Positions 3,633 through 27,446 of a DNA stretch of 32,000 nucleotides are shown here, in pieces; position 1 is the stretch's first letter; every line of letters begins with the position of its first letter. The notes below the pieces were generated by a model that worked only from the letters and a program-made list of their open reading frames with translations, made no database searches and was not told the origin of the DNA. Source of the stretch: Acaryochloris marina S15 (GTDB lineage Bacteria; Cyanobacteriota; Cyanobacteriia; Thermosynechococcales; Thermosynechococcaceae); contig NZ_CP064923.1 of NCBI RefSeq assembly GCF_018336915.1, forward strand, positions 1,260,001 through 1,292,000. The letters are read 5' to 3'. Made by a program: the position numbers and the translations under genes.

Positions 3633-6600
3633 CTACTTTACGTTGGCCCGAAACCGAACGGCACCGTAAGAAGTTGCCGGGGTACCTACGCCCGTTGTCT
3701 GGGGTAAGTCACCTAAGTTAACGACAATGGCACCGTTGTCTTCTGTTTGAGCGGGGGCATTATCACAAACTGCAGGCAAAGAGGAACCCGGTGGGTAATA
3801 CTGAGCGGTATCTCCATCTGCATCGTTGGTAAATGAGAGAAGACTGCCGTTGTATTCGACTGTAATGCCCCGATTAGCTCCGATGCCTCCACTAGGGGCA
3901 GGGGTTACGGCGTTAAACGCATCAGGCACAAAGGTTTGGAAACTGGGAACTTTATCGCAGAATTGGACATCCATGGCCGTTGAAGTACCCGTTGATAGGA
4001 AATAGATGGTGTACTCTATCTCGTCCCCTGGACGGGTTTGACCCCCATTGGTGGCCCCCAGTAAAAAGGTGCTTGGAGTGGGCCAGTATTCTGTATCCAA
4101 GGGAGTTGGCGCAGGGCTATTGAGGGTATTGTCGTCGTACTCATAGCTGGGGTCATCAACGTAAACATTGAGGTTAGTGCCCCCATTCGCTGTGAGACCA
4201 TTTACACGGGTGATCCGCTTGACCAATAACACATTGGGGTTGTTGGTTGCAGGTGGGCAAAGTGAGCGTAACAAGCTGGTCATATCGTCCGCTAAGTCAT
4301 CATAGGTATTGACTTCTACATAATCTGCAGAATTAGCATTATCCAGCGCAGCATTAAATTGCGTGGTATTACTACCATCGGTTATACCCAAGAAATCATT
4401 GATATCTAAATTTTGGATGCCAATTCCATAAACATGAGCACCTGCCTGCTTGAATTGCAATGCTTCATCGTTCGGGCTGCCTCCTGTATTGATATTGCCA
4501 TCTGCGAAGAAGAAAACGGCATCAGGACTGCCAGGTGATACCCCCAGAGAAATAGCCTGCTGGAATCCAGCTTCCCAATTGGTGAAGCCCCCGCCAATAT
4601 TGACATAGTTAGTATTTAGAGCACTTTCGAAGGTGGGTAAATTAGCAGCCGTTACGTCGGTGTAATTAATCACTGTGGCACTGGAAGTATCAAACCGGAC
4701 AATACCAACCCGAGAAGTAATATTGTTATCGACCAAGTAATTGAGCATTGCCATGACCGCATCACGTTGTGCTCGTCGCTCACTGAGATCCACTGAACCA
4801 GATTTATCCAAGATAAACATCATGTCACTGCTCACCTGACAGAAGTTATTATCTATATCTGGATTTTCTGGAGTTGCGATCGCAAGTGTGTAATCTTCTA
4901 CCTCACCATTCCTAGCAAATCCCCCCGGTGTGTTGGCATTGACGTTGACATCTGTGGTGAGGCGAAAACGAGCATAGGTGGTCGTGCCACCTGTCAGCCC
5001 ACTCACGCCGGCCCCAGACCAGGTTAATGCCCCATCTGGAGAACTGTTGCCGCTTTGTACCGTTTGACTGGCATATTCATCAGCCTCAAAAGTGCCATTT
5101 CCATCAAAGTCCACCCAGGCATGTAGGGTAGCCGGCCCCCCAGTATCATTGGTTGCGGAGATATTTGCTGCCTGAATGGTGTAGGAGGTATCGCTGGCGT
5201 TGAGGGCCGCTAAGATCACACCATCCTCATCATCAGGAGAGCCATTGTTATCGTCTCCTAAAGCATTGGCTGTAGGAATGGGACCATTATCGCCATCTCT
5301 TGCAGCACCCAGCTGAAGCGTAGTAGCTGTAGTACCCGCATGGGAGGGAACACCGTAATCGGACGGGGCATCGCTAAAATCGATAACTTGAATATCAGAA
5401 ATATCAAAAGTCCAAGAGTTTTGGCGAGGGCAGCTTGCACCAGAACAGTTGGCAGCCCCCACATCATTCCCAGCAATTATGGTGAAGGTGCTGACCGTGT
5501 CTCCCAGGTAACTATAAACCTCGTAGCGATCGTCTGTGCCAATCCCGTTTTGCACATTCGAAGAATTCTGAATTCGATGACGAATCCCGCCTCCGGTCGG
5601 CGGCACGAGTTCCAACAAGGTTGGATCATCGATAAATACGGTGTCGGCACCGACCACTTCCACAAACTCTCTAACCGCGTTCGCAGCTCCGTTTCCATCA
5701 ACATCCTGAGCACTGAAAAAAACGTTGGTTGCTGCTAAAGGAGTATTTGTTCCTGCTTGAACTAACTGAAAATCAAACTGAATCGAAGAGATGGTATTCG
5801 CTCCGCCATCGTGGCGAATGACCGGCTGAAATCGATCGGGGAACGTATTGTTATCATCCAAGGTGGTGAGGGTGGCATTATTGATATTGCTAACCGTGAC
5901 TAACGCATCAATCCCTTGCCCACCTACGGTAGCGACATTCTGGAAGCGGTAAACGTTCGTTGTGGCGGGCTCTAATGTTGGTGTTGAGTCATTGAAATTT
6001 AGAACGGTAACTTGTAAGAGCTGAGCGTAATTCGACTGCGCTAGTTGCTGAGAAACCATCTGGGGTTCTAGTTCACCCAGCTGATACTCTAAGGTCCAAT
6101 CTCCACCCTGGGTTGCATCACCCGTTGGATTATTGGAGGCAGCCACATCAGCGTTGCTTAGGGCGCTAAGGTTAGAAACAAATGCTTTCCCTTCCGTTGT
6201 CGAGGCAACATTGCATCCATAGAGAAAGATATCTGCCGTTGGCGATAGTGCCGTTTGCCACTGCTGAATTTGTCCCGCCTTTTGGTGGAGAGTGGTTGAA
6301 TTGACCCGTGAGTTTCCCAGATGTAACTGAGCAGCAGATCCATGAGAGATCAAGTGCACTGCTTTAAGATTGCGATAGTTGCTGAGAATATCGCTAATTT
6401 GATCTAGTCCATCTGCGTTTGAATTAATAAAGTGCACAGCAGCCTGGCTAGGCAAATTTTTGAGCAACGCATCTGGGTTGGTTACACCTGCATCAACAAT
6501 AATCACATCCGTCATGGGAGTGGCAAGGAGACGGGTAGAGGTTTGCCCTAAATGAGTTGGAGATTTTGAGTAGGCAGAGACTAGATCATGCTTAGCTTGT

Positions 6601-6740
6601 GGATAAATCTCCATAGCAGCCTGTGAAGGGCTGCTGTAGCCAACACTTCCCACAGCTCCGAATAAAATCAGACCTGCTAATGTCTGCTGGCATTTAGAAG
6701 AGGCGAAGAAGTTTGGCTTGGAAAATCTAGGAAACATCAT
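3633..6740 (-). CDS. Secreted multidomain adhesin-like protein (gene G): DUF4347-like N-domain, GEVED domain, vWA domain with MIDAS, shared C-terminal DUF11-like module
   Basis: Signal peptide ...LAGLILFGAVGSVGYSSPSQA. DUF4347-like block DVIIVDAGV...AVHLISHGSAAQLHLG...IFLYGCNVAS (approx 6096-6512). Literal GEVEDYTL motif preceded by DFSDAPSDYG...AWVDFDGNGTFE (approx 4875-5387). vWA region with DxSxS MIDAS (FILDKSGSV, D at 4806-4808). Last 203 aa are paralogous to the C-terminus of gene F. Confidence 0.85.
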   Translation of the reverse strand: MMFPRFSKPNFFASSKCQQTLAGLILFGAVGSVGYSSPSQAAMEIYPQAKHDLVSAYSKSPTHLGQTSTRLLATPMTDVIIVDAGVTNPDALLKNLPSQAAVHFINSNADGLDQISDILSNYRNLKAVHLISHGSAAQLHLGNSRVNSTTLHQKAGQIQQWQTALSPTADIFLYGCNVASTTEGKAFVSNLSALSNADVAASNNPTGDATQGGDWTLEYQLGELEPQMVSQQLAQSNYAQLLQVTVLNFNDSTPTLEPATTNVYRFQNVATVGGQGIDALVTVSNINNATLTTLDDNNTFPDRFQPVIRHDGGANTISSIQFDFQLVQAGTNTPLAATNVFFSAQDVDGNGAANAVREFVEVVGADTVFIDDPTLLELVPPTGGGIRHRIQNSSNVQNGIGTDDRYEVYSYLGDTVSTFTIIAGNDVGAANCSGASCPRQNSWTFDISDIQVIDFSDAPSDYGVPSHAGTTATTLQLGAARDGDNGPIPTANALGDDNNGSPDDEDGVILAALNASDTSYTIQAANISATNDTGGPATLHAWVDFDGNGTFEADEYASQTVQSGNSSPDGALTWSGAGVSGLTGGTTTYARFRLTTDVNVNANTPGGFARNGEVEDYTLAIATPENPDIDNNFCQVSSDMMFILDKSGSVDLSERRAQRDAVMAMLNYLVDNNITSRVGIVRFDTSSATVINYTDVTAANLPTFESALNTNYVNIGGGFTNWEAGFQQAISLGVSPGSPDAVFFFADGNINTGGSPNDEALQFKQAGAHVYGIGIQNLDINDFLGITDGSNTTQFNAALDNANSADYVEVNTYDDLADDMTSLLRSLCPPATNNPNVLLVKRITRVNGLTANGGTNLNVYVDDPSYEYDDNTLNSPAPTPLDTEYWPTPSTFLLGATNGGQTRPGDEIEYTIYFLSTGTSTAMDVQFCDKVPSFQTFVPDAFNAVTPAPSGGIGANRGITVEYNGSLLSFTNDADGDTAQYYPPGSSLPAVCDNAPAQTEDNGAIVVNLGDLPQTTGVGTPATSYGAVRFRANVK
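3636..4244 (-). repeat. Copy 1 of the shared 203-aa C-terminal module (in gene G)
   Basis: NNPNVLLVKRITRVNG...SYGAVRFRANVK. My manual alignment gives 168/203 identical residues to 7544-8152. Similarity starts abruptly at NNPNVLL. Confidence 0.9.
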
Positions 6741-7052
6741 GAGTCACTGGATGTTGAACAAAATGGAAAAGGGTGTATCCCAAAAAGATAAAACCCCTGA
6801 AATAATGGATAGGTATACGTTTTTTACTTGCGAATAAGAAAAATATGCTGATAAAGCTTGAAATCAGATAAATTTCCCAAAAAAGTCATCTATGGATGTC
6901 TTAAGGTAGAAAGGCTTGCCATCTATTCAGGCAGCAAGAGCTTTTTGCCTAGCAATATCGCAGGTTCTTCCTCCCTCCAATCAGGTAGATAGGAGGCTTC
7001 ACCTCATTCACTCAGAAGAAGTAAAGGGCTATTCAGTAGACTTTTTCTGTAG

Positions 7053-7478
7053 CTATAGTTGACCATTTACAGAGAAAGTCGACCATCTATGGCTATAGTT
7101 GGCCTGCCAAGAGATATTTTTGCCATTAGTAAATAAAAAGACGCATTCACTTTGATGTGCTGCGTCCCGGAATATTACTAGTGGCATGAGCGACTCAAAT
7201 ACCTCGCCTTGGAGCCCATGGCCATATTGATCAAAATTTGCTGGAGACCTGTTAATGCTCTTTAGCAAGCGTTCGTTATTACGAGCTGAACGATCACCAT
7301 AAACAGAAGACGTTGGGTCGTCTTGGTTTGCAATTCATATTTGCGTCCACGGCAACGACCCAAGCCCATACTTAATGTCTATCCCACTCTCACTCCTTGG
7401 GCGGTTATAAACTTGTTCCACGATGCCCACCTCATTGATATCGAGATGGGTGCGTAGGTGGAGAGTAAGCGCTGTCAT
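7053..7478 (-). pseudogene. Unassigned 142-codon frame interrupted by one in-frame TGA (possible gene remnant, or two small ORFs)
   Basis: ATG at 7478 (MTALTLHLRTHLDINEVGIVEQVYNRP...), in-frame TGA at 7335-7337. The same frame continues into track ORF 7053-7268 (..LLKSINRSPANFDQYGHGLQGEVFESLMPLVIF..). I recognise no family. Confidence 0.25.
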
Positions 7479-7540
7479 CAATTCCTGGTAAAGAGCTAGG
7501 CATTTGATGCGGCGTCGATTAGGTATGGAGTCCTAGTGAC

Positions 7541-9778
7541 CTACTTTACCTTGGCCCGGAATTTTAATGCGCCATAGGAAGTGGTAGGGGTTCCTGGAGC
7601 AGTCGATTCAGGTAGATTTCCTAAATTGATCACCACGGCACCATTGTCTTCTGCTTGGGCAGGGGCATTATCACAAGCAGCAGGGAGGGTTGAACCAGGT
7701 GGATAATACTGCGCTGTATCACCATCGGCATCATTGGTATAAGACAAGGGGGTGCCGTTATACTCCACTGCAATGCCTCGATTAGCCCCTACACCACCGC
7801 TGGGAGCTGGGGTTACCGAGTTATAAGCGTCTGGGATAAAAGTCTGAAAGCTGGGGACTTTATCGCATAACTGAACATCTACTGCGGCTTTATCACCTGT
7901 GGATAAGAAATAAATGGTGTACTCAATCTCATCTCCCGGTCGTGTTTCACCCCCATTGGTCGCACCGAGTAGATAGGTGCTGGGAGTTGGCCAATATTCT
8001 GTATCTAGAGGCGTCGGTTCAGGACTATCGAGGGTATTGTCATCGTACGGGTAGTTGGGATCATCAACATAGACATTGAGATTGGTACTGCCATTGGTGG
8101 TGAGGCCATTGACCCGGGTAATGCGCTTAACCAACAACACATTGGGGTTATTGGTGACAGGTGTATCGGTCGTTTCGATAACTAATGGCGTGGTACTACT
8201 ACTGCTGTTGCCGAAAACATAAGTATCGATATGCCGGAGGTTCCCAAATCCACCTGAGCTGAAATTACCCCAGGTGTGCTTACCCGCAGGGGTATTGGAG
8301 AGTGCACCGTTGGGTAACGTCGTGGTCGCACCAGCAGGATTCCCTAGACCCGTAATATCATCCCAATAGACCAGGGTATTACTGGTGTTCGTATTCGAAG
8401 ATGCTCGAAAAATCGTGAGGCCATTTTGTGCGCCACCTCCGCTGGTTTCAGCATCCGTTGCGACAAAGTGATATTCACCCAGTCTGGCTTGCACCTGAGC
8501 GCTGTAATTTCCGACTGGTAGGGTATTGCCGTTAGCATCTTTACCATCCCACTCAACCGATGTCTCCGCATTGGCTTGAGTTGTGCCTAGCAGGAGTACA
8601 TCCCCGGGACCATAGACGCCATCTGGGCCATTGCCATTGCCATCATCTGTGTCAATGATGATGCCATAGGTGCCATCAACGTTACTGGTAAATTTGAAGA
8701 AGCCCGTATCTTGTACACCTGGAGTTGCCGTTGGCGAGAACGTAAAATCAACCCCAGCACTGTCTTCGAATCGTAGATTGGAAATAACTGGGGATTGGGC
8801 GGGGGGTGGACCAATATTGAGGGTTGGATAGCTGAGATAGACCTTATATTGAGGAGTAGCAGAGTTCCCACTGATAGGAACACTCAAACCCGCAACATTG
8901 TTACCCGCAGCATTGGGGGAATCCACCCCCAGCTCATTGGCAATAATCTCGTAGGCAAAACCTGCAAAATTATTCAGGTCCAATTGCCAGACAAAGTTGG
9001 TATTGGGGAAGCCGCCGGGAACTGGAACGTAATAGTTCGTGTCTGCAGCAGAGGCTGAGTTAAATGAATTACCTCGAAACCCCCACACATAAGTCCAGAG
9101 ACGCCCCTGATTGAGTCTAGGATCTGGATCTGTTGCAGTGTCTGGGGTGAGGGTGATATCAAAACGGTTCAGCGTACCATTATTCCCATTTTGAGAGGTG
9201 TTGAACAAGCGGATCTCATACGTACCAGCCCCTTGTCCACCTGCGGCACTATCAGAGTCATACCGAACTAGCGGGTTGGTAATGACACCATTCATATCAC
9301 TAGTGCAAGAAATATTGTTACCAACAGAGCCAGTATCTGCGACTTTAGTGCCTAGAGGGGGAAGGGTCGTGAACTCATTAAAGGTTCCGGGAGGATGGTA
9401 ATAAATTTCTACTTCAACTGAATCAGCATTACCCCGTCCACAGGCAGAGACGTTAATGACTTCCCCAGCCTGAACGTCAACATACAATGGTCTATCCTTC
9501 TGGGTGATGCCTGAAGAAGAAGCACCACTATAGGTCGAATCATACTCTAGCAAGCCTTGAAATTGAGTAGGGACAGAGTTGGTTTCATCGCGAAGTTCAA
9601 GCTGATAGGAACCTTCTGCCAGAGCTTTAGAGGGTACCCACAACATTCCCAGGGTTGTCCCTGCCAGGGCTACTTTGGTGATCCAAGATGGGACCCGAAG
9701 GTACGTTCGATTCTTGTTTGATGTTGAAAAATTTTGATGAGAATTTAGTTTTCTCGCAATTGCATAAAGGTGGTTCAT
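7541..9778 (-). CDS. Secreted adhesin-like protein (gene F) with FlgD-Ig-like segment and shared C-terminal DUF11-like module
   Basis: ATG at 9778 (MNHLYAIARKL...); the track start at 9817 is a TTG. Long signal sequence ends ...VALAGTTLGMLWVPSKALA. Contains a VEWDGKDANGNTLPVGNYSAQVQA motif (FlgD Ig-like pattern). Last 203 aa are paralogous to gene G. Confidence 0.85.
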   Translation of the reverse strand: MNHLYAIARKLNSHQNFSTSNKNRTYLRVPSWITKVALAGTTLGMLWVPSKALAEGSYQLELRDETNSVPTQFQGLLEYDSTYSGASSSGITQKDRPLYVDVQAGEVINVSACGRGNADSVEVEIYYHPPGTFNEFTTLPPLGTKVADTGSVGNNISCTSDMNGVITNPLVRYDSDSAAGGQGAGTYEIRLFNTSQNGNNGTLNRFDITLTPDTATDPDPRLNQGRLWTYVWGFRGNSFNSASAADTNYYVPVPGGFPNTNFVWQLDLNNFAGFAYEIIANELGVDSPNAAGNNVAGLSVPISGNSATPQYKVYLSYPTLNIGPPPAQSPVISNLRFEDSAGVDFTFSPTATPGVQDTGFFKFTSNVDGTYGIIIDTDDGNGNGPDGVYGPGDVLLLGTTQANAETSVEWDGKDANGNTLPVGNYSAQVQARLGEYHFVATDAETSGGGAQNGLTIFRASSNTNTSNTLVYWDDITGLGNPAGATTTLPNGALSNTPAGKHTWGNFSSGGFGNLRHIDTYVFGNSSSSTTPLVIETTDTPVTNNPNVLLVKRITRVNGLTTNGSTNLNVYVDDPNYPYDDNTLDSPEPTPLDTEYWPTPSTYLLGATNGGETRPGDEIEYTIYFLSTGDKAAVDVQLCDKVPSFQTFIPDAYNSVTPAPSGGVGANRGIAVEYNGTPLSYTNDADGDTAQYYPPGSTLPAACDNAPAQAEDNGAVVINLGNLPESTAPGTPTTSYGALKFRAKVK
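7544..8152 (-). repeat. Copy 2 of the shared 203-aa C-terminal module (in gene F)
   Basis: NNPNVLLVKRITRVNG...SYGALKFRAKVK. Both Cys (FCDKVP/LCDKVP and AVCDNAP/AACDNAP) are conserved between copies. The DNA copies differ at many third-codon positions. Confidence 0.9.
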
Positions 9779-9919
9779 AATTCTAACAGAGGAAAATGGA
9801 GACGTTCTACCACCCAAATCGAGCCTTAACCAGAATTATTCACAGTTGATATAAGCATTCATGAGGAAAGTCCTAACAGCAGCCTGAAATAGGCTAGTGT
9901 AGGGCTCCACACAAATGGC

Positions 9920-9938
9920 TTTCGAGAACTTCTCGAAA
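9920..9938. promoter_or_regulatory. 19-nt palindrome (9-bp arms, 1-nt centre) between genes E and F
   Basis: tttcgagaa-c-ttctcgaaa. It lies 55 nt downstream of the gene E stop and about 140 nt upstream of the gene F ATG. It could be a terminator stem or a dimeric-regulator operator. Confidence 0.3.
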
Positions 9939-9992
9939 TCGTCGTGAATAATTCAGTTAAGGGGAATTAAGCAATTTAGGTTTTATGTTTGG

Positions 9993-11693: not shown

Positions 11694-11725
11694 TATTACC
11701 TCTTGGGGATACAAACTAGGTAGGG

Positions 11726-11763
11726 ATTTAATAGGTGTGATGTCATTTAATAGGTGTGATGTC
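11726..11763. repeat. Perfect tandem direct repeat, 2 x 19 bp (atttaataggtgtgatgtc)
   Basis: Units at 11726-11744 and 11745-11763 are identical. They lie between the gene D hairpin and the gene E start codon. They share the 13-nt core ttaataggtgtga with both arms of the 3575-3621 hairpin. Confidence 0.9.
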
Positions 11764-11771
11764 GGAGATAG

Positions 11772-11809: not shown

Positions 11810-11815
11810 GTTCAG

Positions 11816-14800
11816 CTATCGGACGACTTCAAAACTGGGTTGAGTTTGGGACGCTGCTGGCTCCACGACAACCTCGGGTTCAGACTTGGTATCCACGAGT
11901 TCAGCCTTAGGCTTGGAGACTTTAACTTCAGGCTTAGACTTAACTTCAGGCTTGGAAACGTTCGCTTCAGAGGGAGAAGCAGGGTTTGAAGCTTCTTGGA
12001 CCTGGCCGTTATCTGGTGCAGACTCTTGCTGCTGCGGGGGCGCTACCTTATTTTCACCGAAGCCAAAATCATCAAAGAGATTGTTGTCTAGCTTCAGGGT
12101 GACGCCAAAGTAAGGACCGCTGGCAGAGCGAGAGTTACCAAAGTCACGGTCTCCCACATCTCCAAAAGCGTATCCAGCCGCCAATCGTAAGTTGGGATTG
12201 AGGTAGTAACCGACTTCCGCAGAAGCGCCCACCTCATTAAACCCAGTACTATTTTGGCGAATCCAGCGAACTTCACCGCCAATATCCCAACGGTAGCTAA
12301 TTCGATAGGTGGCCCGCATTTGAGCCAAGGAAATGCTACTAGTGCCGATTAAATCCTGAGCCAGGTAAGACTTGCTATGTCGCCAGCCAAACTTGCCGTA
12401 GAGTTCCCAGCGCCAGTTGGGGGCATAGATAGCCTCTGCTGAGATCAGATGATCCGTGGAGCCGGTGCCGTTGGCAAATAGTAAGGTATCAGGAATCGTG
12501 GAGGGATTCTCGCGATACTCATAGCGGAGTAAGGCGTTGAACTTATCACTATCGGGATTCCGATAGGCCACACCCACTTTCAAGTCTCGGGTTGTACCCA
12601 ACCCAGCCAGGGTTTGGTTCGAAGCACTAGCTTGTTGGTAGCTGGCCAAAACCGTGAGGTCACGGGTGGCTCGACCCAAGGCATTGGCTGTGATGATGGT
12701 ATTGCTGCCCTGAGCGGTATCACTGTACTCAAAACGAGCATTGGCTTGGAAATCAGGGTTGTCTGTATAGGCTAAACCGAGGCTAAAGCTATCGCCGGGG
12801 GTTAAGCCCAAGGCGGAAGCACCAGACCCTAAAGCAAAGGGTTGGGCAAACTGTTGACTGGCAGCGGTTTGTTGCAATGCAGTGTTAAATACATGCTCGT
12901 AGGAGAAATCAGCCCGGAGACCGGGAGCGATGGTCAAGCCCTGCTCAACCCCGAAGTAACCGGCCATGCCCAAGTCACCCATCATGGAGAATTGGCCCCG
13001 AAGGGTGGTATCCGTGGAGAAGGTATGTTGTCCGGCGATATCTAGACTAGTAATAAAGTCATCATCAAACTGGCCCCCGGTCAAGTAGGTGTTATTCAGA
13101 CCAATGGTGACCCCAGGATAAACCTCATATTCCAGACCCACCGAGGTGCGGTTGGGATAAATGGGATCAATTTCCGAAGAGAAGGTGGTCTCGTTCAAGG
13201 CCCGCAAGGTCAGTTTCCGCGTGATCGGTATCCGGGCGGTAGAGCGAATTTGGTCAGTGGTGATGTCCTGGCCCGTGAGACGATCCGTGCGATCGCGTCG
13301 GACGTAGTCCAGACTTACTTCAGAATCGCCGATCCGCTGGAGAACCCCTGCCGTAATCGTGGTCAGAGAGTTATTAACGGGATTACCAGGAGTGGCGGAG
13401 AAACCGGGTTGAATTAAATCTTCAAACAGATCAAGCGGACGAGGCGCAACGCCAAAATTATCCTCATGGTCATAACTGGCTCGCAGCTTAGTATTCCGAG
13501 AGACCGCTGCTAGGACTTCTGCCCCGTAGCGCGTTTGCCCAGGAACAAAGCTAGTGGTGGCATTGTTGGAGAAGCCCACATCAGCCCGCTTAAAATAAGC
13601 TCGACCAGTAATGTCATCTGTCGGCTTCGCTTCAATTTCAACCCGGTAAGCATTGCCGCTCACCGGAGTGGCGAAATCAAGGGAATTATTAGAACGAGCA
13701 TATTCCGCAACTAGGTAGTTATCCTTGCCGAAGGAAACCAACGCATCAGCACCATAGAGTTCAAAGTCTTGGCTACCGCGATTTTCACGGAAATAGGTGG
13801 CCCCCACCCAGCTTTCCTGATCTAAGTTCCGAGAGAACGTATACTGGGCGCGACCACCGAAGGTATCGGTATCCGCATTTTCGCCTTCAAATTGGTAAGT
13901 GGTGACGATTCGGCGAACCAGCACATAGCCATCATCATCGACATCCGTGCGGAGAATCGGGCGTTGGAATTTCAACGTACCGCGATCATAATCTACTTCA
14001 TAGTCAGCCCCGCGACTTAACCGCTCTCGCTTCAATACAGTACCGGGGCGATTGAGTTCTTCCAGCTCTAGGTAAACTTGCTCACTCCCTGGAATCAGCA
14101 ACCGTCGAGATAAGAAATAAAATCCGCTAGTCCCATCGGGAGCAATGGTATCTCGCTGGAAGCCTTCAGTGTTATTGCCGTACAGTGCCGTGAGCTGCAG
14201 ATTACCGATGTTGTAATTGCCCTTAAAGCCATGTAAAGAGCGGCTGGTGGCGGTAAATAACTGAGACGAACGAGAAAATTCTTCCGTATTGTAATCACCC
14301 CACATGAAGTAATCACTGCCGGCACCGGGGACCGGTGAGGTCCGTTCTAACCGTACAAATAAGTTATCGGTGGACGGAGCCGTCACATCCGTGATTGAGT
14401 TATCCCCGTAGGTGGCGTAATTGTTGTAATCACATTCTGTCCCAGAGGCTTTGAACAGGGTCGTTTCGCCGTTGCAGTCCTCATTTAGGGGGCGAGCGCT
14501 ATTAAAGGCACCGGTCAATAACCAATCGCCAATGGAGGTAATACCAAAGGCTTGGGCACGAGCATCGACTTCATACCCATTGTCACCGTCTACAGGTAGG
14601 AACTCGCGGAAGCTGTCGTAAAAGTTGGTGCCCCGACGACCGATCCGGACATCTACAACCCCGGTTAACAGGGCCGAAGGCCGAATGGGAGTGGAAAACT
14701 GAAACTGATGGAACCCTTCCATATTGGCAGCGGTGGCCCGAACTCGCACCAACCCTGCACTAATGCTCGACTGTAAGTCAGCGGTGAATTTACCATCAAT

Positions 14801-15904
14801 GGCTTCCACCTGGAACCCAGGAACATCGGGTTTGTTATCGGTACCAACGAATTTTCCTGATGTGGCTTCTAGGGTGACAATCGCATCCCAGTTCGACTGG
14901 TTACCATTCGAGTCCAGCAAGTAACCCAAGACCTGAGCCGTGGACCGACCATCAGCAGGAACTTTGTTTTGAGCTGTGCGCACCTTAATCTGGGTAGGTT
15001 CACCAGGAACTTCTACCTGGATGGTGGCACTGGGGGTCTCTTGACCGACTTCGTTCACCGTAATGGTATTGACGCCTGCGTCTAGGATGACCCCATACCA
15101 GGTTTGCCGAGTTTTCTGAGTAGCAGAATTGGTCTCAGTTCGACCCACTTGAGCGCTATCAACAGTCTTACCATTGACCCGTAGCTCAACTTTTTGCTCC
15201 GTGCCAAATTCAATAATGACGGTTGCAGAAGGTTTATCAACAACGCTGCCTGGTCCAGGGGTCAGAATTGAAATGCCTGAAGCTGGCGTAGTCGCTGGAG
15301 CTTGAGCTGTTGTAGGTGCTTCAGAAGAAGCAGAAGCAGGTGTCTCAGGCACATCCGAAACTTGGGGCGTGTCCTTAAGGGGTGATGTTTGGGGCTGAGG
15401 TGTGGCAACCGCAGGTTGTGTTTTAGCGGCTGCCTCTTCAGCGATGGCTTCAGTTGTCACTGCTTCTTGTGGGATGGCTTCAGTGGCAACTGCATCTTCA
15501 GCGGGTTGATCACCAACGAGGAGTGTCTCTTGCGCCAGGCTTTCAGGGGCAGCTTCTGCAGCAGGAGTTATTTCCGCTTTAGGGGCAACTGGCTGGGGTT
15601 CCCTAGCGGTTGTTTGGGGTTCACTAACCGTCTGAGGTTCGCCAGCAATGCCAGAATCAGCCACGACCTCTTCGATAATAGGCTCTGGGGTAAGAGCTTC
15701 GTTAATGGACGGCTTTTCGACACTTAAGGTTGGTTCAGCTTGGCTAACGGATGGCTTTTCTGCACTCAGGGTTGATTCGTCTGCAGGCTTAACTTCTTCA
15801 ATGGCTTGGGCATTGGCCAGAGTAGGGGTTAAGACAACACTGGTGCCTGCGACAATTCCGAGAAGTCCAGTTTGCATCCACTGGGAAGAACGTTGATGTT
15901 TCAT
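11816..15904 (-). CDS. Giant predicted outer-membrane beta-barrel protein (gene D) with N-terminal Pro/Glu/Ala-rich spacer, two Ig-like domains and a C-terminal repeat tail
   Basis: Signal peptide MKHQRSSQWMQTGLLGIVAGTSVVLTPTLANA. Residues ~33-205 are P/E/A/T-rich low complexity. Residues ~211-300 are Ig-like. Residues ~301-403 are Big_1-like (VPADGRSTAQVLGYLLDSNGN...VTLEATSGKF...GLVRVRATA). Residues ~405-1282 show alternating amphipathic strand/turn patterns typical of OM barrels, ending ...YFGVTLKLDNNLFDDFGF. An ~80-aa tail follows with SKPEVK repeats. Confidence 0.8.
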   Translation of the reverse strand: MKHQRSSQWMQTGLLGIVAGTSVVLTPTLANAQAIEEVKPADESTLSAEKPSVSQAEPTLSVEKPSINEALTPEPIIEEVVADSGIAGEPQTVSEPQTTAREPQPVAPKAEITPAAEAAPESLAQETLLVGDQPAEDAVATEAIPQEAVTTEAIAEEAAAKTQPAVATPQPQTSPLKDTPQVSDVPETPASASSEAPTTAQAPATTPASGISILTPGPGSVVDKPSATVIIEFGTEQKVELRVNGKTVDSAQVGRTETNSATQKTRQTWYGVILDAGVNTITVNEVGQETPSATIQVEVPGEPTQIKVRTAQNKVPADGRSTAQVLGYLLDSNGNQSNWDAIVTLEATSGKFVGTDNKPDVPGFQVEAIDGKFTADLQSSISAGLVRVRATAANMEGFHQFQFSTPIRPSALLTGVVDVRIGRRGTNFYDSFREFLPVDGDNGYEVDARAQAFGITSIGDWLLTGAFNSARPLNEDCNGETTLFKASGTECDYNNYATYGDNSITDVTAPSTDNLFVRLERTSPVPGAGSDYFMWGDYNTEEFSRSSQLFTATSRSLHGFKGNYNIGNLQLTALYGNNTEGFQRDTIAPDGTSGFYFLSRRLLIPGSEQVYLELEELNRPGTVLKRERLSRGADYEVDYDRGTLKFQRPILRTDVDDDGYVLVRRIVTTYQFEGENADTDTFGGRAQYTFSRNLDQESWVGATYFRENRGSQDFELYGADALVSFGKDNYLVAEYARSNNSLDFATPVSGNAYRVEIEAKPTDDITGRAYFKRADVGFSNNATTSFVPGQTRYGAEVLAAVSRNTKLRASYDHEDNFGVAPRPLDLFEDLIQPGFSATPGNPVNNSLTTITAGVLQRIGDSEVSLDYVRRDRTDRLTGQDITTDQIRSTARIPITRKLTLRALNETTFSSEIDPIYPNRTSVGLEYEVYPGVTIGLNNTYLTGGQFDDDFITSLDIAGQHTFSTDTTLRGQFSMMGDLGMAGYFGVEQGLTIAPGLRADFSYEHVFNTALQQTAASQQFAQPFALGSGASALGLTPGDSFSLGLAYTDNPDFQANARFEYSDTAQGSNTIITANALGRATRDLTVLASYQQASASNQTLAGLGTTRDLKVGVAYRNPDSDKFNALLRYEYRENPSTIPDTLLFANGTGSTDHLISAEAIYAPNWRWELYGKFGWRHSKSYLAQDLIGTSSISLAQMRATYRISYRWDIGGEVRWIRQNSTGFNEVGASAEVGYYLNPNLRLAAGYAFGDVGDRDFGNSRSASGPYFGVTLKLDNNLFDDFGFGENKVAPPQQQESAPDNGQVQEASNPASPSEANVSKPEVKSKPEVKVSKPKAELVDTKSEPEVVVEPAASQTQPSFEVVR

Positions 15905-17502
15905 TATTTGGACTCCTCCTGGAAGGTAGGTGTGACACCGAAGTTCATGCGTACACTGCTACCGGGAGAGAGTTTGACCAAACGCGAAGGGCTATTGCTT
16001 TCTATAAATTGGAGATTGGGTGCCAAGGTGTAACCGGGCAATGTGGTTAGGTCCAGAGCGCCGGTGCGAGGTCCAGGCAACACACATCTGACATGGAAGA
16101 GGCCATTCTCATCGGTTGTAATGCGATTGCCGTCATCCATCCAGACCACAGCATTGGGAACGCCAGGTTCTCCCGTTTGCTGTTCGCCATCAAAGTTTTT
16201 GTCAACAAAGACTCGACCTAAAATATTGCCACAGTCTGTAAGAATGCCTGGGTTCACCCGTACGCGGTGAACTACGGGGCCATCCCGGACATCTAGGTTG
16301 TTATCCACTCGGAATCCTAGAACCGAGGCGGAATTTCTGCCATCGCCTCTAATCGCATCTGGGGTGAGTTGGGCCGCATAGACGACATTGATCACGCCTT
16401 CTAAGGGGATGACTGCGTCGGTTCTAAAGGTTAGATTTTGGCCGTTTTGCTCAACCGTAATGGGAACTTCTGTTCCGTCTAGCGCCCCCCTGACTGAGTT
16501 GGGGAGTAACTTAAATCCGGCGGGTAAAATATCCTGCACCGAGATGGTGTCTAGCTCTCCATCCGACAGGTTGCGCAGGGTCAGACGGTAAATCACTGAA
16601 TCTCCGGGGGCAGCATTGGCCCGGTCCCCAGATTTACTGATTTGAATCTGATTGGTCTGGCATAGGGCGGAAGAGAAGTTTAGGGCCAATAACTGCAACG
16701 AGATTCGCTCAGCATCGCCAATGGTGGTTACCGTATCTTCAAAGTTGATGGCTCCTTCTGCGGCGATGGGCAAACCATCGAGGGAAGTAGCTGTATAGGT
16801 AACTAAGTTACGGTTGCCCGTCGGTATGATAGATGTAATCGTCAGACGAACTCGGCGCTGATTGTAGATGGACGCGTCCGGTGGTGTGACGACTAAGATG
16901 TAAGATTGACCAACAGAGAGCTGTCCCCGGCTAGGATCTAATAGATAGCTATAGGTCCCTTGGTCTGCATTGCTAAGGGGGAACGGATTTAAGTTAGACC
17001 CATTGGGGGTGATTCCCAGGGGAATACCATTATTGGGTAGATCAGGAACTTCTGTTCGAGTCAGTGAAACTAAACTACCCAGTTCCGATTGGGTTGGATC
17101 GGTGGGATCGATATTGTAGAGACCGACCGTAAATCCGGTATAGTCTGCCAGAGGTTCTCCGCCACAACCTAAGACTTGTCCACGGGGGTCGAGTAACGAA
17201 GGGTCCAACACGTTTGAAATCGGATTGGTGAAGCTTTCGATCAGCGTGTCAGTATTGGGATTGGTGTAGGAATATGAAGCGGTGTTATTGAGCAGATCTC
17301 TGGAATCTTCTTCCTCCGTTGTTTGGGCCCAAGATATTGCAGAACTCGAGAATAAACTGCTCAAAACCAAGGTTGAGGTCAGAGCACGAGCCCACCTGGG
17401 GAAGGATTGATTGGGGAATGGCAAGTGAGGTGGTCTCACGGGAGATATCTCCTCTGGAACAATCGGATAGAATCGCTGACTCTTTACAAGGTTGAAAAAC
17501 AC
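15904..17502 (-). CDS. Secreted three-module protein (gene C): prealbumin/CnaB-like, DUF11-like and SdrD-B-like domains
   Basis: Contains DPRGQVLGCGGEPLADYTGFTVGLYN, QISKSGDRANAAPGDSVIYRLTLRNLSDGELDTISVQDILPAGF (DUF11 pattern) and GRVFVDKNFDGEQQTGEPGVPNAVVWMDDGNRITTDENGLFHV (SdrD B-like pattern). The signal-like segment is RWARALTSTLVLSSLFSSSAISWA. The start is uncertain: GTG at 17502, no ATG upstream of the signal peptide. The stop overlaps the gene D start (TAATG). Confidence 0.75.
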   Translation of the reverse strand: MFFNLVKSQRFYPIVPEEISPVRPPHLPFPNQSFPRWARALTSTLVLSSLFSSSAISWAQTTEEEDSRDLLNNTASYSYTNPNTDTLIESFTNPISNVLDPSLLDPRGQVLGCGGEPLADYTGFTVGLYNIDPTDPTQSELGSLVSLTRTEVPDLPNNGIPLGITPNGSNLNPFPLSNADQGTYSYLLDPSRGQLSVGQSYILVVTPPDASIYNQRRVRLTITSIIPTGNRNLVTYTATSLDGLPIAAEGAINFEDTVTTIGDAERISLQLLALNFSSALCQTNQIQISKSGDRANAAPGDSVIYRLTLRNLSDGELDTISVQDILPAGFKLLPNSVRGALDGTEVPITVEQNGQNLTFRTDAVIPLEGVINVVYAAQLTPDAIRGDGRNSASVLGFRVDNNLDVRDGPVVHRVRVNPGILTDCGNILGRVFVDKNFDGEQQTGEPGVPNAVVWMDDGNRITTDENGLFHVRCVLPGPRTGALDLTTLPGYTLAPNLQFIESNSPSRLVKLSPGSSVRMNFGVTPTFQEESK

Positions 17503-17680
17503 TGTTTTTCAGGTTCAAAAAGATGTAAATGCAGTATTTTTGGATATAGGATCCCTATCAGGCCGCGATTTGAGCCTGAAAGCAGCATTTTTGCTGAAAA
17601 ATAATAAAGCTTAAGGCAGTTTGACCAGAGCTATGGATGAACCGAGGGAATGCTGGGATTCACCCATAGCTCCAAATTCG

Positions 17681-18241
17681 TTACTGAACTGCTACTTCAT
17701 AGACAGCTTGTACAGAAGCCATGGGCTTGAGGGATTCACTATAATCCCACTGAACATGGGTGTAAGCTTCAGCAGGAGCGGGCTCCATTTTGACTGTGCC
17801 GTCGGGCTGAGTTACTTCAACCATGGGCTTTTCAGAATAGCTTTGGCCACCGTCAATGCTATAGGTGAGCTTGGCACCGTTGGCGCGAGCAGAGTCCAAA
17901 ACAAAAGCAGTTTTGTTCGGAATAGGCTGGTTGATGGTTAGCTCAGCAGCAGACTTGTCTCCAGCATTCTCACTCAGCAAGGTATAGCGGAGGACATCAC
18001 CAGGACGGACAGTGACATTGCCTTCTACAGCATCCCAGGAGATTTCTTGCTTACCTTCAGCATCAGTCGTAACGATTTGCTTCTCTGCCGAGAGCACCAT
18101 CTTTACCTTGGGCTGGAGGATTTGCTGGACGAGAGCTTCGCCTGCTTTCTGCAAATTGGCAAGAACAGGAGTGCTGCTAGCGAAAGGAATGGCGACGGCT
18201 ACTGCTAAGACACCGAGACCGATTGATAGACGACGTTTCAT
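17681..18241 (-). CDS. Small secreted single-domain DUF11-like protein (gene B)
   Basis: Signal peptide MKRRLSIGLGVLAVAVAIPFASSTPVLA. One module follows with RPGDVLRYTLLSENAG...LTINQPIPNKTAFV...KLTYSIDGG...VYEVAVQ. Confidence 0.8.
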   Translation of the reverse strand: MKRRLSIGLGVLAVAVAIPFASSTPVLANLQKAGEALVQQILQPKVKMVLSAEKQIVTTDAEGKQEISWDAVEGNVTVRPGDVLRYTLLSENAGDKSAAELTINQPIPNKTAFVLDSARANGAKLTYSIDGGQSYSEKPMVEVTQPDGTVKMEPAPAEAYTHVQWDYSESLKPMASVQAVYEVAVQ

Positions 18242-18303
18242 GATGGGAAAACCTTTTGAATTCAGAAAAATGCTTTAACAAAATTGGTGTGAGACCGCGA
18301 TAA

Positions 18304-18340
18304 GAGTCAGGAAGTTGAAGTTGCCTTCACTTCCTGACTC
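18304..18340 (-). terminator. Strong hairpin 6 nt after the gene A stop (candidate terminator/attenuator)
   Basis: gagtcaggaagt (18304-18315) pairs with acttcctgactc (18329-18340). The inner gaag/cttc pairs extend the stem to 16 bp with a one-nt bulge and a ttgc loop. Gene B starts about 60 nt further downstream. Confidence 0.55.
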
Positions 18341-18346
18341 AATGCA

Positions 18347-21001
18347 TTACTGGATGCGACGGCGGAACTGGAATTGACCGGTTTGACCGGGGTCAACTTG
18401 ACCAACGGGGTTCTCATACTTATCCACTTTGGTTCCAGCAATGGGATCTGCAGTGGTTAAAGGAGCACCATCAGTGCTGTTGGTGAAATATTCCACTGTG
18501 CCTTGGTCAGCACTGGTGTTTTGCTCGTGGTCAGTAAAGGACGCCCAGTTGTTGTTGACGTTCTGCTCACCAGTACCCGCGTTTACAACAGGATTTCCAT
18601 CTTCAACAATCTCGAAGTTAAAGGCAGTTAGAGTGGTATTACCACTACCGACAACATCTGTCGAGAGGTTTTCATAGGTAATCCGGTACTCAATTTGGTA
18701 GTCCGGCTGCAGAGCAGTAGCAGGAGTATTATTCAAATTGTCCAGTACTGTTTGGTCCGAAGTCCAAGCTTGGATCAGTACACCATTCTCATCTAGAATC
18801 TGTACTTCCTTAGTCAACTTCATGAAGCCTGTATAGAGGCGATCAAGAGTTATGTTCGTAGTTGATTCAGGAGTACCGGTAAAGTTATACCCAGGAGAGC
18901 TAGTAGGATTATCATCTGCAAAGGCAAGGATGGGAACAGGAATCTCATCATTCGGGAGAACATCATCTGCAGTACCCGCTGCACTACCATCAGGTAAATC
19001 AACGACTGTCGTGTAATTTAAGGTGTCACCTGCATTTAAGTCACCGACATTAACATGTTTGAAGTTACCTGCAGTCTCAGGAGTTCCATCAGTACTGCTA
19101 CCGGTCAGGTCAAAGGTTGTCCCGTTATAAGTATATGTAGCAGACTGAACAACACCAGCATCGTCAGTCGCAGTAATCGTGACAGTTGTGCCAGTAGGGA
19201 TATCGCTGTTAGCGCCATATTGACCTGTTAATGTACTGTCATCCGTAGACTCTGCCTGGGTGGGAGAAATGGGTTGCAAGGTTACGTTCGAAATAAATCC
19301 AGAGCTAGCCGGATTTTGAATCGTGTTGTTAAAGGTTTCAGGTGCAGGGTCAAAGATATCGGTTGGACCCACCCCAGCAGGAACATCTGTGGTCTGATTG
19401 GTGAAATCATCGTTATCGTCCGTGGGACCGACAGCGCCAGGGACAGTATTTGGACCATTGAGGAGGTCGTCAGTACCCGCAGCGTCACCGATATTGACAA
19501 CGTTGTCTTCACCATCGGGGCCAGTACCCGTGTTGTTATTGCCGGTATCAGTTCCTTGGGTTACAGGGTCTGCAACACCAGTATCTCCAGTATTGGCGGT
19601 TGGGTCATAATTAGTACCCGTTGGATCCGGTGGGGTGCCATCATCGTTGAAGTTATTGGGATTGCTGTCACCAGACTCATCGTAAACAACTTCATCGTCA
19701 GGATCGCCGACGGTTTCACCAAATACCTGGGCAATGTTAGCAACCTGTCCACCAGTAGTCGGTAGACCATTAGTCACTACGGTGAACTGGAAAGGTCCCT
19801 GTACTGGATCTGTCCGAAGTACCTGTGGGTTTGTGTCACTTAAAGCTGCATCGTTATGGATAAAACCAATTCGAGTGACATCAGTTAATCCACCTGCCGG
19901 TAGGGCAGTGGTCCATAGGGCATTAGTTGCTGTGGTGGTCAGTGCTGTTTCGGTATAAACAACGGTCCAGCCAGCGGGGGCAGTCCCTGCCGCAGATAAT
20001 TCAGTACCAGCTGGAATTGCATCAGAGACTAAGATCTGAGGAGCGATTGTCCCATTGACACTAATATCTGTTCCTTCTAGATCAGCCGGAGTGAAAGCAG
20101 CATTAGGAGACGTATTTTCTACCGTTAGCCCTAAGTCATAGGTAATCAAATCGTCATTAGCAGCAGCCGTTGCACCAGGAGCGAGATTAGATGCAATTTT
20201 GGTGACAGTTGCTAAGGCTAAGGGACGGACGGAGCTAGCAAAAGGAATGCTGTTCTCGGCACTTGCTTCACGCTCGCCGTTGACGGGAGCACCATTGCCA
20301 GGATTCGCATCGATGGTACGAATGTCTCCTGTATTGGTATTTCCAGCTGCTGGATCTCCATCGCCTGTATCGGGTTGGTTTTGAGTGCTGGGGCTGTTGT
20401 TGTCAGGACCAGTACTACCCAAGGTGACGCCGACATCTGCACCTGCAGAGGTGCCAGCGGCAGGGGTACCTGTGACTTTCACTTTTAGAACAGTGTCAGG
20501 AGCCAGAGCGGCTAAGTTAATACCGGCTGCATCTAATAAGTTACCACCAGCGGCTGGAACTGTTGCGATGACTGCGCCTGTACCATCAATAATCTGAACT
20601 AGTGATGGAGTGAAGTTCTCAGTACCAATATTGTCAATACCTGGAATAAAAAGATCTGTCGCTGCGTTACCCACGTTAGTAACGTCGAAAACGAATTCTA
20701 AGGTATCACCAGCTTCAACAGCACCGCCATCTAAGTCAGTGAAACCGGCAGGAACTGCGGTCACACCTGCAACTTCTGCAACGGTGACGGTAACCGTATT
20801 AGATGTTGCATCAATGGTGGGTCCACCATTGGTTTCTGAATAGGTTGCAGTCGCGGTGTTACTGATTTGTTGACCAGCGGCTGTTCCGGCGGCGAAGGCT
20901 GGAAGAAGAGGTTGGACTAGGCCACCTGCCAATAAGGCTGCAATGGTAAGAGGGCCAAGCTTTCGTGGTCGTCTAGGGGACTTTGGTGTATCTTGAGTCA
21001 T
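18347..21001 (-). CDS. Secreted multi-module DUF11-repeat protein with acidic Asp/Gly/Thr/Asn/Pro-rich insert (gene A; candidate major surface subunit)
   Basis: ATG at 21001 (MTQDTPKSPRRPRKLGPLTIAALLAGGLVQPLLPAFA); an upstream in-frame ATG at 21085 is the track start. Modules begin ISNTATATYSE...TVTVAEVAGV and ATVTKIAS...ITYDLGLTVENTS...FQFTVVTNG. The C-terminal module reads MKLTKEV...PDYQIEYRITYENLS...TVEYF...GQFQFRRRIQ. The mature protein has no Cys. Confidence 0.8.
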   Translation of the reverse strand: MTQDTPKSPRRPRKLGPLTIAALLAGGLVQPLLPAFAAGTAAGQQISNTATATYSETNGGPTIDATSNTVTVTVAEVAGVTAVPAGFTDLDGGAVEAGDTLEFVFDVTNVGNAATDLFIPGIDNIGTENFTPSLVQIIDGTGAVIATVPAAGGNLLDAAGINLAALAPDTVLKVKVTGTPAAGTSAGADVGVTLGSTGPDNNSPSTQNQPDTGDGDPAAGNTNTGDIRTIDANPGNGAPVNGEREASAENSIPFASSVRPLALATVTKIASNLAPGATAAANDDLITYDLGLTVENTSPNAAFTPADLEGTDISVNGTIAPQILVSDAIPAGTELSAAGTAPAGWTVVYTETALTTTATNALWTTALPAGGLTDVTRIGFIHNDAALSDTNPQVLRTDPVQGPFQFTVVTNGLPTTGGQVANIAQVFGETVGDPDDEVVYDESGDSNPNNFNDDGTPPDPTGTNYDPTANTGDTGVADPVTQGTDTGNNNTGTGPDGEDNVVNIGDAAGTDDLLNGPNTVPGAVGPTDDNDDFTNQTTDVPAGVGPTDIFDPAPETFNNTIQNPASSGFISNVTLQPISPTQAESTDDSTLTGQYGANSDIPTGTTVTITATDDAGVVQSATYTYNGTTFDLTGSSTDGTPETAGNFKHVNVGDLNAGDTLNYTTVVDLPDGSAAGTADDVLPNDEIPVPILAFADDNPTSSPGYNFTGTPESTTNITLDRLYTGFMKLTKEVQILDENGVLIQAWTSDQTVLDNLNNTPATALQPDYQIEYRITYENLSTDVVGSGNTTLTAFNFEIVEDGNPVVNAGTGEQNVNNNWASFTDHEQNTSADQGTVEYFTNSTDGAPLTTADPIAGTKVDKYENPVGQVDPGQTGQFQFRRRIQ

Positions 21002-21085
21002 ATGATGTCGTCTTTGAGTTCTTGGTAATGGACAATAGGAAGATAGACATCTTCCGGCAGAGATGAGTTGTAACTGACCCGCCAT

Positions 21086-27404: not shown

Positions 27405-27446
27405 GTCAGGGATACCTCTCTAAAAGCCGATTAAAAATGAAAGATG

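Follow-up and report, generated by a model that had tools for sequence, protein, structure and literature searches.

Seven genes on the minus strand, here named A to G, occupy positions 3633 to 21085 of the 32,000-nucleotide stretch of Acaryochloris marina S15 DNA under study (the window). With modest confidence, we take this locus to be a copy of a conserved gene cassette for building a surface fiber that is anchored in the outer membrane and carries interchangeable adhesin heads. All seven open reading frames (ORFs) were recovered in an ORF check of the window, and each product begins with a hydrophobic stretch followed by an AxA-type site, in agreement with the consecutive minus-strand genes with signal-like N termini listed in the initial annotation. 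Scanning of the seven proteins revealed no further transmembrane-like segment and no C-terminal LPXTG signal. The starts that this annotation had preferred to those of the maximal ORFs for A (21001 instead of 21085), E (11693 instead of 11774), and F (9778 instead of 9817) suit the position of the signal peptide better, whereas C, placed there at 17502, probably starts at the GTG codon at 17439, because a homologue of 99% identity is 511 amino acids (aa) long. Profile searches of each protein replaced the first, motif-based domain calls with matches to the DUF7925/DUF11, beta-helix, and vWA families.

At least 577 stretches encode a relative of D in a collection in which each species is represented by a single genome. 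Gene order, strand, and family matches were compared across the best 80 of these D-locus neighborhoods, all of them cyanobacterial and including those of Nostoc symbionts and the production strain PCC 11901; the conservation counts given below refer to this set. A, B, and C accompany D in 71, 70, and 75 of the 80 loci, respectively, with constant order and strand, and their absences fall at contig ends. The homologues are tightly co-localized rather than scattered (A-B-C-D in 70 to 75 of the loci), and D co-occurs with C-like genes, A/B-like genes, and genes for a shared C-terminal domain (CTD), the last lying downstream of D in 59 loci, which bears out the neighborhood that had been proposed for D. 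A to E are 84 to 95% identical to proteins of A. marina MBIC11017 (NC_009925), and A (32 to 45% identity) and B (37 to 60%) are more variable than C and D, which are conserved to about the same degree (50 to 57%). No other neighbor is conserved around A to D in the 80 loci, the recurrent ones being clade-specific housekeeping genes. A sortase, a chaperone-sized gene, an ATPase, and an ABC transporter/membrane fusion protein (ABC/MFP) pair are absent from the locus, and none is conserved across the related loci. The initial annotation had noted these absences, together with that of an LPXTG-hydrophobic-basic signal, for the locus itself. With no further conserved neighbor, the lack of a chaperone, a sortase, and an ATPase is thus a property of the cassette.

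C (15904 to 17439, minus strand, like all features of the locus) is a three-domain, pilin-like protein of ∼511 aa and the proposed base subunit. In Foldseek, its AlphaFold2 model (pLDDT 77) is best matched by sortase-pilus pilins of the backbone and basal types (T6, BcpA, EbpB, SpaD, and RrgB) and by the solved CLIPPER (DUF11) structure 9ifr, and its profile matches are DUF11 and, weakly, SdrD_B (CnaB-like). The middle domain (16258 to 16647) spans positions 2 to 112 of the 114 in Pfam DUF11 and is complete: a first-strand Lys, a PGDxIxY strand, the Asp of a vvtDxlP motif, an NG..W strand, and a Y/F-x-V-x-V strand are followed by two closing strands, the first of which starts at the bond Asn. 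Its Lys290/Asp324/Asn390 triad is conserved in 77/77, 77/77, and 78/78 orthologues. The stop codon of C overlaps the start codon of D (ATGA). In Smithella (L081) and in an unclassified bacterial metagenome-assembled genome (MAG; L083), which harbor the same cassette, the two proteins are fused into one polypeptide, where an N-terminal hairpin of the donor type described below and a CLIPPER array lead to a C-like region (E values of 2e-23 and 1e-17), D-like Ig domains, and the barrel (6e-70 and 4e-71 for the D-like part). These occurrences indicate that the cassette is older and more widespread than cyanobacteria and that C works physically with D. C therefore is not simply one of the subunits encoded beside D, as first perceived, but the partner of D. 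Likewise, the conservation of the cassette in cyanobacteria holds, but its restriction to them does not.

D (11816 to 15904) is a 1362-aa predicted outer-membrane protein consisting of a signal peptide, a Pro/Glu/Ala-rich linker, two Ig-like domains (14705 to 15271), a giant barrel region (aa 405 to 1290; 12035 to 14692), and a disordered tail. AlphaFold2, run on residues 205 to 1300 of D alone with 63 sequences (pLDDT 77), predicts two Ig-like sandwiches followed by ∼40 long beta-strands that would form a barrel, in line with the outer-membrane barrel suspected from the outset. The Ig-like domains are of a sub-threshold Big_1/Invasin_D3/GH2_C5 type and also occur in distant homologues. No Pfam or NCBIfam family matched D above threshold, and Plug, TonB_dep_Rec, Usher, and autotransporter profiles gave no match. 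Foldseek comparison of the model with the PDB returned SlpA/SDBC of Deinococcus as the top match (E value of 1e-10; TM score of ∼0.2), along with SprA (0.09 to 0.16), MtrB, FimD (0.17 to 0.27), and TonB-dependent receptors, all with TM scores of at most 0.27. The family test that had been suggested for D thus ended without an identity as a porin, a TonB-dependent receptor, or a classical usher. Sequence searches of solved structures with A, C, and D and with profiles of B and D retrieved only a designed barrel, an Ig domain of glycoside hydrolase family 2 (GH2), and chance matches. An exhaustive search with the barrel region alone reached 1,963 representative clusters at an E value of ≤1e-3. 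Beyond the cyanobacterial set, most of the matches are proteins of 1,600 to 2,770 residues with the barrel at the C terminus, from sources such as Smithella, a deltaproteobacterium, and Geminicoccaceae. In the four of these proteins that were scanned, N-terminal arrays of CLIPPER-type, SdrD_B, and SpaA domains precede the same Ig domain and then the barrel. OmpA or three SLH domains are present in some distant homologues, others carry the name SPOR-domain protein, and a faint match to Chlam_OMP6 was also detected among them.

Two further observations concern D. Both of its ends are of low complexity and rich in Pro, Glu, and Ala (residues ∼31 to 210, 15275 to 15814; residues 1291 to 1362, 11819 to 12034), with repeated SKPEVK-like units in the C-terminal one; they may be periplasm-spanning tethers, and some homologues bear OmpA, SLH, or SPOR domains in their place. 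Many D homologues (P0005, P0009, P0012, and others) are named "TonB-dependent receptor" by NCBI, which is probably a systematic misannotation, since D has neither a Plug nor a TonB_dep_Rec domain.

Modules related to the C middle domain recur in the other secreted products. The PGDxIxYxI-type motif is found in B, C, F, and G (4 matches versus 0.05 expected in shuffles), whereas A, which the initial annotation had counted among its carriers, has degenerate versions only. Profile-profile comparisons link B, the C middle domain, the CTD of F and G, and the N-terminal module of A with probabilities of 65 to 96%. The DUF11-fold modules recognized at first are thus confirmed, and their ends display a complementarity that had gone unseen: some subunits begin with a hairpin without a domain, and some end with a domain that stops short of its hairpin.

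The orphan hairpins of A (20780 to 20890) and C (17194 to 17295; LLNNTASYSYT in this strain) are proposed donors. The mature proteins start with ISNTATATY...SNTVTVTV (A) and LxNQATYTYTD (C), and the two hairpins are homologous (hhalign probability of 96%; E value of 2.6e-9). The hairpin is the best-conserved stretch of A, and its Asn is invariant in both proteins (Asn76 in 72/72 ungapped A orthologues; Asn73 in 76/76 C orthologues); no Lys and acid partner for it was seen downstream in cis in either A or C. A hidden Markov model (HMM) of the hairpin matched 72/76 A and 74/78 C proteins, at the N terminus in every case, and none of the B, D, and E proteins. It also matched the N termini of the shaft-like and barrel proteins of Smithella and L083, as well as 18/68 distant giant barrel proteins at residues 12 to 60. 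In the Smithella barrel protein, internal DUF11 domains end with ITNTASVT and VSNTASVT, and the N terminus of the protein itself reads IINTATATY. Pfam searches with the isolated hairpins and with the C-terminal module of A gave no match.

Conversely, the acceptor-type modules of B, of the CTD, and of the A C terminus all end, together with the protein, at the x-V-x-V strand (YEVAVQ in B, FRAKVK in F/G, and FQFRRRIQ in A), and the AlphaFold2 model of C shows a complete domain running two strands beyond this point. The Lys of the missing bond is nonetheless kept in each of them (70/71 B, 71/71 CTD, and 74/74 A sequences), accompanied by Asp in the CTD (71/71) and Glu in A (70/73), whereas B has no acid there but Gln (71/71). 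A conserved turn Asn of the acceptor modules (N175/N177 of the F/G CTD, 65/71; N845 of A), located in both at the NG..W-strand turn, was rejected as a bond partner in cis, as the complete domain of C has the same turn. The gene order in Smithella and L083 matches this scheme. The three genes before the barrel protein encode a large CLIPPER protein, a B homologue of ∼170 aa, and a CLIPPER protein of ∼600 aa, which are, in this order, an acceptor-only head protein, the B homologue, and a donor-plus-acceptor protein. A Geminicoccaceae MAG (L084, 7920 to 14091) has a reduced system, in which a 341-aa protein with a donor hairpin and an acceptor-type end directly precedes a 1,696-aa protein that joins a C-like to a D-like part, and no B homologue was detected near that locus.

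A (18347 to 21001; ∼884 aa) is a secreted multidomain protein encoded directly upstream of B and the proposed shaft subunit, having both a donor and an acceptor end. It matches DUF7925 (E value of 1e-62), a CnaA-like isopeptide domain that was defined from a Nostoc protein (PMC12617251), and the orthologue alignment identifies a complete Lys296/Asp355/Asn450 triad of the intramolecular isopeptide type in this domain (19649 to 20215). The C-terminal truncated, CLIPPER-like module, the putative acceptor with Lys759 and Glu828, spans 18350 to 18865 and ends before the Asn hairpin. An internal LPTTG lies within the DUF7925 domain (19763 to 19777; residues 441 to 445 of the 912-aa ORF); it is not a sorting signal, because no C-terminal hydrophobic and basic tail follows. 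Residues ∼480 to 560 (19400 to 19650) form a strongly acidic, Asp/Asn/Gly/Thr/Pro-rich stretch of low complexity that could serve as a linker, either flexible or cation binding; in total, A contains 112 Asp and Glu versus 27 Lys and Arg.

B (17681 to 18241; 186 aa) is a secreted protein with a single acceptor-type module that matches the DUF11 repeat, without a head and without a donor hairpin. The module carries Lys54 and Gln105, the latter at the canonical position of the catalytic Asp (17927 to 17929), which is occupied by Gln in all 71 cyanobacterial sequences, by Asp in Smithella, and by Asn in the L083 MAG. Judging from these residues, B may bind hairpins without bond formation. Its homologues in Smithella (L081, 7482 to 8000) and L083 (6607 to 7110) were matched with E values of 1e-19 and 4e-25, respectively. 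An exoproteome of Synechococcus PCC 11901 lists FEK30_15105 and FEK30_15110, two adjacent DUF11 proteins of 185 and 512 aa that, by size, annotation, and adjacency, are likely B and C homologues, and a separate study has put the signal peptide of a DUF11 protein of this strain to use.

F (7541 to 9778) and G (3633 to 6740) are proposed distal adhesins, each with a head and the CTD, and would be acceptors only. Their similarity is confined to the last 206 aa, the CTD (7544 to 8161 in F; 3636 to 4253 in G), which is 83% identical between them, matches the DUF11 repeat, and is a truncated CLIPPER-like module. Downstream of D and on the same strand, 59/80 loci encode one to three CTD carriers; in all 69 such proteins, the CTD lies at or within two residues of the C terminus, and its Lys, Cys, and Asp are each conserved in 71/71 sequences. 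The attached heads vary (vWA, GEVED, LTD, DUF7933, and DUF11). That of G combines DUF4347, GEVED, and a vWA domain (4332 to 4826; Pfam VWA, E value of 4.7e-13); of the intact metal ion-dependent adhesion site (MIDAS) first claimed for this domain, the profile match and, by eye from the translation, a DKSGS sequence fitting the DxSxS start are borne out. At the F position of A. marina MBIC11017 (L001, 15979 to 18477, versus 7541 to 9817 in the window), a different 832-aa head is joined to the same CTD. The CTD alone aligns there, with 69% identity as opposed to 84 to 95% for A to E, which indicates that heads are swapped between close relatives. The seven further Nostoc proteins matched by the hairpin HMM combine the hairpin with the CTD (L005, 17853 to 20666; L016, 17405 to 20203; L018, 18496 to 20631 and 20728 to 23520; L021, 16685 to 18820 and 18920 to 21712; and L023, 6932 to 10783) and would, from this arrangement, be additional shaft-type subunits.

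The initial annotation had proposed a diderm route in which D handles DUF11-fold subunits. Such a route is supported, in that neither the co-localization of the genes, the family test of D, the exoproteome listing, nor the literature search refuted it, and we infer its function as follows. All cassette proteins would cross the inner membrane by Sec. D would then insert as a very large outer-membrane barrel, with its N-terminal Ig-like domains and linker in the periplasm, and hold C, the base subunit with a Gram-positive-pilin fold. The N-terminal hairpin of A and C, right after the signal peptide, resembles the last hairpin of a CLIPPER domain. We propose that it provides the truncated domain of the next outward subunit with the two strands that this domain lacks, which would be donor-strand complementation. 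The donor Asn would thereby come to lie beside the acceptor Lys and acid, making a spontaneous intermolecular Lys-Asn isopeptide bond possible ("exchange and lock"). From the outside in, the fiber would consist of F or G (or B) at the tip, A in the shaft, C at the base, and D as conduit and anchor, with F and G as acceptor-only heads, A as donor and acceptor, C as donor only, and B as a headless acceptor acting as a cap or hairpin holder. This polarity is that of type 1 pili of the chaperone-usher pathway. Export would be driven by folding upon complementation and not by ATP. To judge from the peptidoglycan-binding modules between array and barrel in distant homologues, the C/D junction may lie in the periplasm, with the stalk running through the lumen of the barrel.

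Several points weigh against this model. Those same SLH, OmpA, and SPOR modules would fit a periplasmic structure too. The closure of ∼40 strands into one barrel is a prediction, and the truncated domains would have to stay soluble without a dedicated chaperone. In B, the catalytic position is occupied by Gln, Asp, or Asn, depending on the lineage, so that a conserved acid is missing. Having no donor hairpin, B cannot polymerize, and yet its putative homologue seems to exceed the C-like protein in abundance in the exoproteome of PCC 11901. The equation of the donor hairpin with the missing final hairpin is suggested by motif, position, and orphan invariant residues, and the hairpin could instead pack on the first domain of its own protein. 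When the donor hairpins were aligned, profile against profile, with the hairpins that close the complete C and A domains, no match was significant; this comparison has no power, since even those two canonical hairpins fail to match each other.

Other explanations account for parts of these data. D might serve as translocon and anchor of a display system, with the CTD (and the similar ends of A and B) as the sorting or docking signal for D or C and the proteins held singly, without a fiber. The terminal or near-terminal position of the CTD in all 69 proteins with variable heads would be expected of such a signal, SprA is among the Foldseek matches of D, and the cassette lacks a chaperone. We nonetheless consider this display rather unlikely: it leaves unexplained both the orphan hairpins at the N termini of A, C, and the fused barrel proteins, with their invariant Asn, and the invariant Lys and acid in domains without an Asn in cis, the cassette has no genes of the PorU/PorV/GldKLMN type, and the TM score to SprA is very low. 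Less probable still is an envelope scaffold, in which the barrel and the CLIPPER proteins tie the outer membrane to peptidoglycan or form a surface or periplasmic layer, like SlpA/SDBC in Deinococcus or OmcB in Chlamydia, with adhesion as a secondary trait. The SlpA/SDBC match, the SLH, OmpA, or SPOR modules, and the faint Chlam_OMP6 match in distant homologues would all be in keeping with it. However, D has no SLH domain or coiled coil, and its TM score to SlpA is low despite the E value. The quickly swapped heads of the F/G type (vWA with MIDAS, GEVED, LTD) are characteristic of exposed adhesins, the PCC 11901 exoproteome includes likely homologues of B and C, and the orphan invariant residues again find no explanation.

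The neighborhood might, lastly, be coincidental, with D as a nutrient channel or TonB-dependent receptor, as the NCBI pipeline names many of its homologues, and A, B, C, F, and G as unrelated adhesins that use other routes. D has no Plug, TonB_dep_Rec, or any NCBIfam match, and the C-like and D-like parts joined in one polypeptide, together with the strict synteny over 80 species and into other phyla, exclude such a coincidence for practical purposes. The outer-membrane-anchored fiber remains the reading that we favor.

The remaining product of the locus, E (9993 to 11693), is a secreted right-handed beta-helix protein, as first assigned (Beta_helix and NosD matches). It directly follows D in ∼18 to 27 of the 80 loci, depending on the method, and is treated as an accessory, noncore component. 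Upstream of A, 1.3 kb of noncoding, AT-rich DNA (21086 to 22405; GC content of ∼0.39 versus ∼0.49 elsewhere) contains only short ORFs and could act as a long leader of the cassette or in its regulation. Neither Rfam nor tRNA scans gave matches there or elsewhere in the window, and promoter and terminator counts between 3000 and 22500 did not exceed those of shuffles. Next comes a Ser/Thr protein kinase gene on the same strand (22406 to 24310), the product of which has a C-terminal region of ∼370 aa without a family match. This kinase and a LuxR-type gene were rejected as regulators of the cassette, neither being conserved beside it in other genomes. Farther upstream lie the housekeeping genes for an NlpC/P60 peptidase (24406 to 25173) and, on the minus strand, the end of a ribosomal-protein operon (ribosomal proteins, secY, and adk; 25537 to 31193). 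On the other side, just downstream of G and on the opposite strand, a gene for a small secreted pentapeptide-repeat protein with a signal peptide (3067 to 3498, plus strand) is not kept beside the cassette in other loci.

A literature search for DUF11, DUF7925, CLIPPER, isopeptide, and usher in cyanobacteria, with most subscription journals outside its reach, found no description of this cassette, in agreement with its first presentation as a candidate undescribed system. The fiber routes known in diderms are chaperone-usher pili, type IV pili, curli, type V pili, and type V- or type IX-secreted adhesins, and, to our knowledge, isopeptide-stabilized pilins are considered a Gram-positive, sortase-dependent specialty. 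The cassette combines pilin folds of Gram-positive style with an outer membrane and a new giant barrel, in the absence of a sortase or chaperone. We tentatively put forward, as a possibility that we hold with less confidence than the fiber itself, a new class of diderm pilus that needs neither sortase nor dedicated chaperone: CLIPPER subunits polymerized by hairpins and locked by Lys-Asn bonds would pass through a ∼40-stranded barrel, fused to the base in some phyla, in hundreds of cyanobacterial species as well as in Desulfobacterota, Alphaproteobacteria, and unclassified lineages. If true, this would define a new class of pilus and secretion, give a function to the largest class of outer-membrane barrels, with ∼40 strands exceeding any solved single-chain barrel, and provide a natural two-part covalent "tag/catcher" pair. 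Cyanobacteria would moreover prove to have a major unstudied adhesion apparatus, with bearing on biofilms, mats, symbiosis, and cell harvesting.

Chaperone-usher pili (FimD/PapC with FimC/PapD) resemble the proposed system in their outer-membrane barrel with periplasmic Ig-like domains, in incomplete Ig-fold subunits completed by the N-terminal extension of the next subunit (as inferred here), in two-part tip adhesins with a variable head and a C-terminal "pilin" domain devoid of a donor strand, in a terminating base subunit, and in dispensing with ATP at the outer membrane. In contrast, neither the seven proteins nor a conserved neighbor in the 80 loci provides a PapD-like chaperone. D does not belong to the Usher family, with ∼40 predicted strands instead of the 24 of an usher (which also has a plug and N- and C-terminal domains), no Pfam match, and only a distant structural likeness to FimD. 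The putative donor is a hairpin of two strands instead of one, the subunits have CLIPPER/CnaA-CnaB folds with isopeptide triads, and the base is fused to the barrel in other phyla. Sortase pili (SpaA, RrgB, BcpA, and EbpB, with vWA tips such as RrgA) share the subunit folds, being the best structural matches of C, the intramolecular Lys-Asp/Glu-Asn isopeptide domains, with triads conserved in A and C, a vWA-bearing tip protein, and covalent links between subunits, which are only proposed here. They differ in that the cassette has no sortase in the window or among conserved neighbors, no LPXTG sorting signal, a diderm host, and an outer-membrane barrel as partner, and the proposed link would be self-catalyzed in the completed domain, not made by transpeptidation.

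Donor-strand exchange-and-lock fibers have been described for BsaA of Clostridium perfringens (bioRxiv 10.1101/2024.11.04.621531) and for the Sulfolobus thread (PMC9715654). There, as in our model, an N-terminal donor segment brings an Asn into the neighboring subunit, which contributes a Lys and an acid to the resulting N-E/D-K triad, and no dedicated polymerase takes part. Oligomers that withstand heat and SDS are a further mark of the BsaA type; of its features, the residue pattern is present and invariant in the cassette. Those subunits, however, have TasA-like and thread-subunit folds and not CLIPPER folds, their hosts are monoderm or archaeal and without an outer-membrane component, and the trans triad is suggested here by conservation alone. 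Type V secretion (autotransporters; intimin/invasin) also joins a long Ig-repeat array and a barrel in one polypeptide, as do the distant homologues of D, with a Big_1/Invasin_D3-like Ig domain beside the barrel and folding-driven export (proposed here). Its barrels of 12 (types Va and Ve) to 16 (type Vb) strands contrast with the ∼40 predicted strands and 880 residues of D, for which Autotransporter, IAT_beta, and ShlB gave no match. Several separate subunits, and peptidoglycan-binding modules between array and barrel in some homologues, also set the cassette apart.

Type IX secretion offers a very large single-chain barrel and cargo with variable heads on a conserved Ig-like C-terminal domain, but D lacks homology to SprA (TM score of 0.09 to 0.16), PorU/PorV/GldKLMN are absent from the cassette, and the CTD is a CLIPPER-like module of 200 aa without matches to type IX profiles, versus 80 to 100 aa for the type IX domain. 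SlpA/SDBC, a trimer with an N-terminal SLH domain, a long coiled coil, and a 30-strand barrel, has its SLH domain in common with some distant D homologues and not with D, which lacks the coiled coil too. A TonB-dependent receptor, made of a Plug, a 22-strand barrel, and a TonB box, was dismissed for D, given the missing Plug and TonB_dep_Rec matches and a barrel region of ∼880 aa with ∼40 predicted strands.

Among cyanobacterial filaments, the CT pilus of Microcystis (MrpC; PMC12397347) is reported to be encoded in a cluster with a beta-rich adhesin and an outer-membrane porin, proposed to be its assembly platform. It is likewise a surface filament with an outer-membrane protein in its cluster, but MrpC is a small hairpin-plus-helix pilin with a unique fold and heavy O-glycosylation, and glycosyl- and methyltransferases are encoded beside it. 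Identity with the CT pilus was rejected, as no MrpC-like gene, O-GlcNAc transferase, or FkbM methyltransferase occurs in the window or the related loci. The CLIPPER fibrillar adhesins, a family set by its domain with intramolecular bonds only and no barrel partner (PMC12617251), share CLIPPER/DUF11 or related isopeptide domains in secreted, elongated proteins with the cassette. Finally, single-chain barrels of 38 and 40 strands were predicted by Roumia et al. (PNAS 2021; PMC8346858), without a function, partners, or gene context. D may belong to one of these families, and a tandem multi-barrel architecture was weighed for it as another possibility; with ∼40 predicted strands, D would, like them, surpass the 36 strands of SprA in a single chain.

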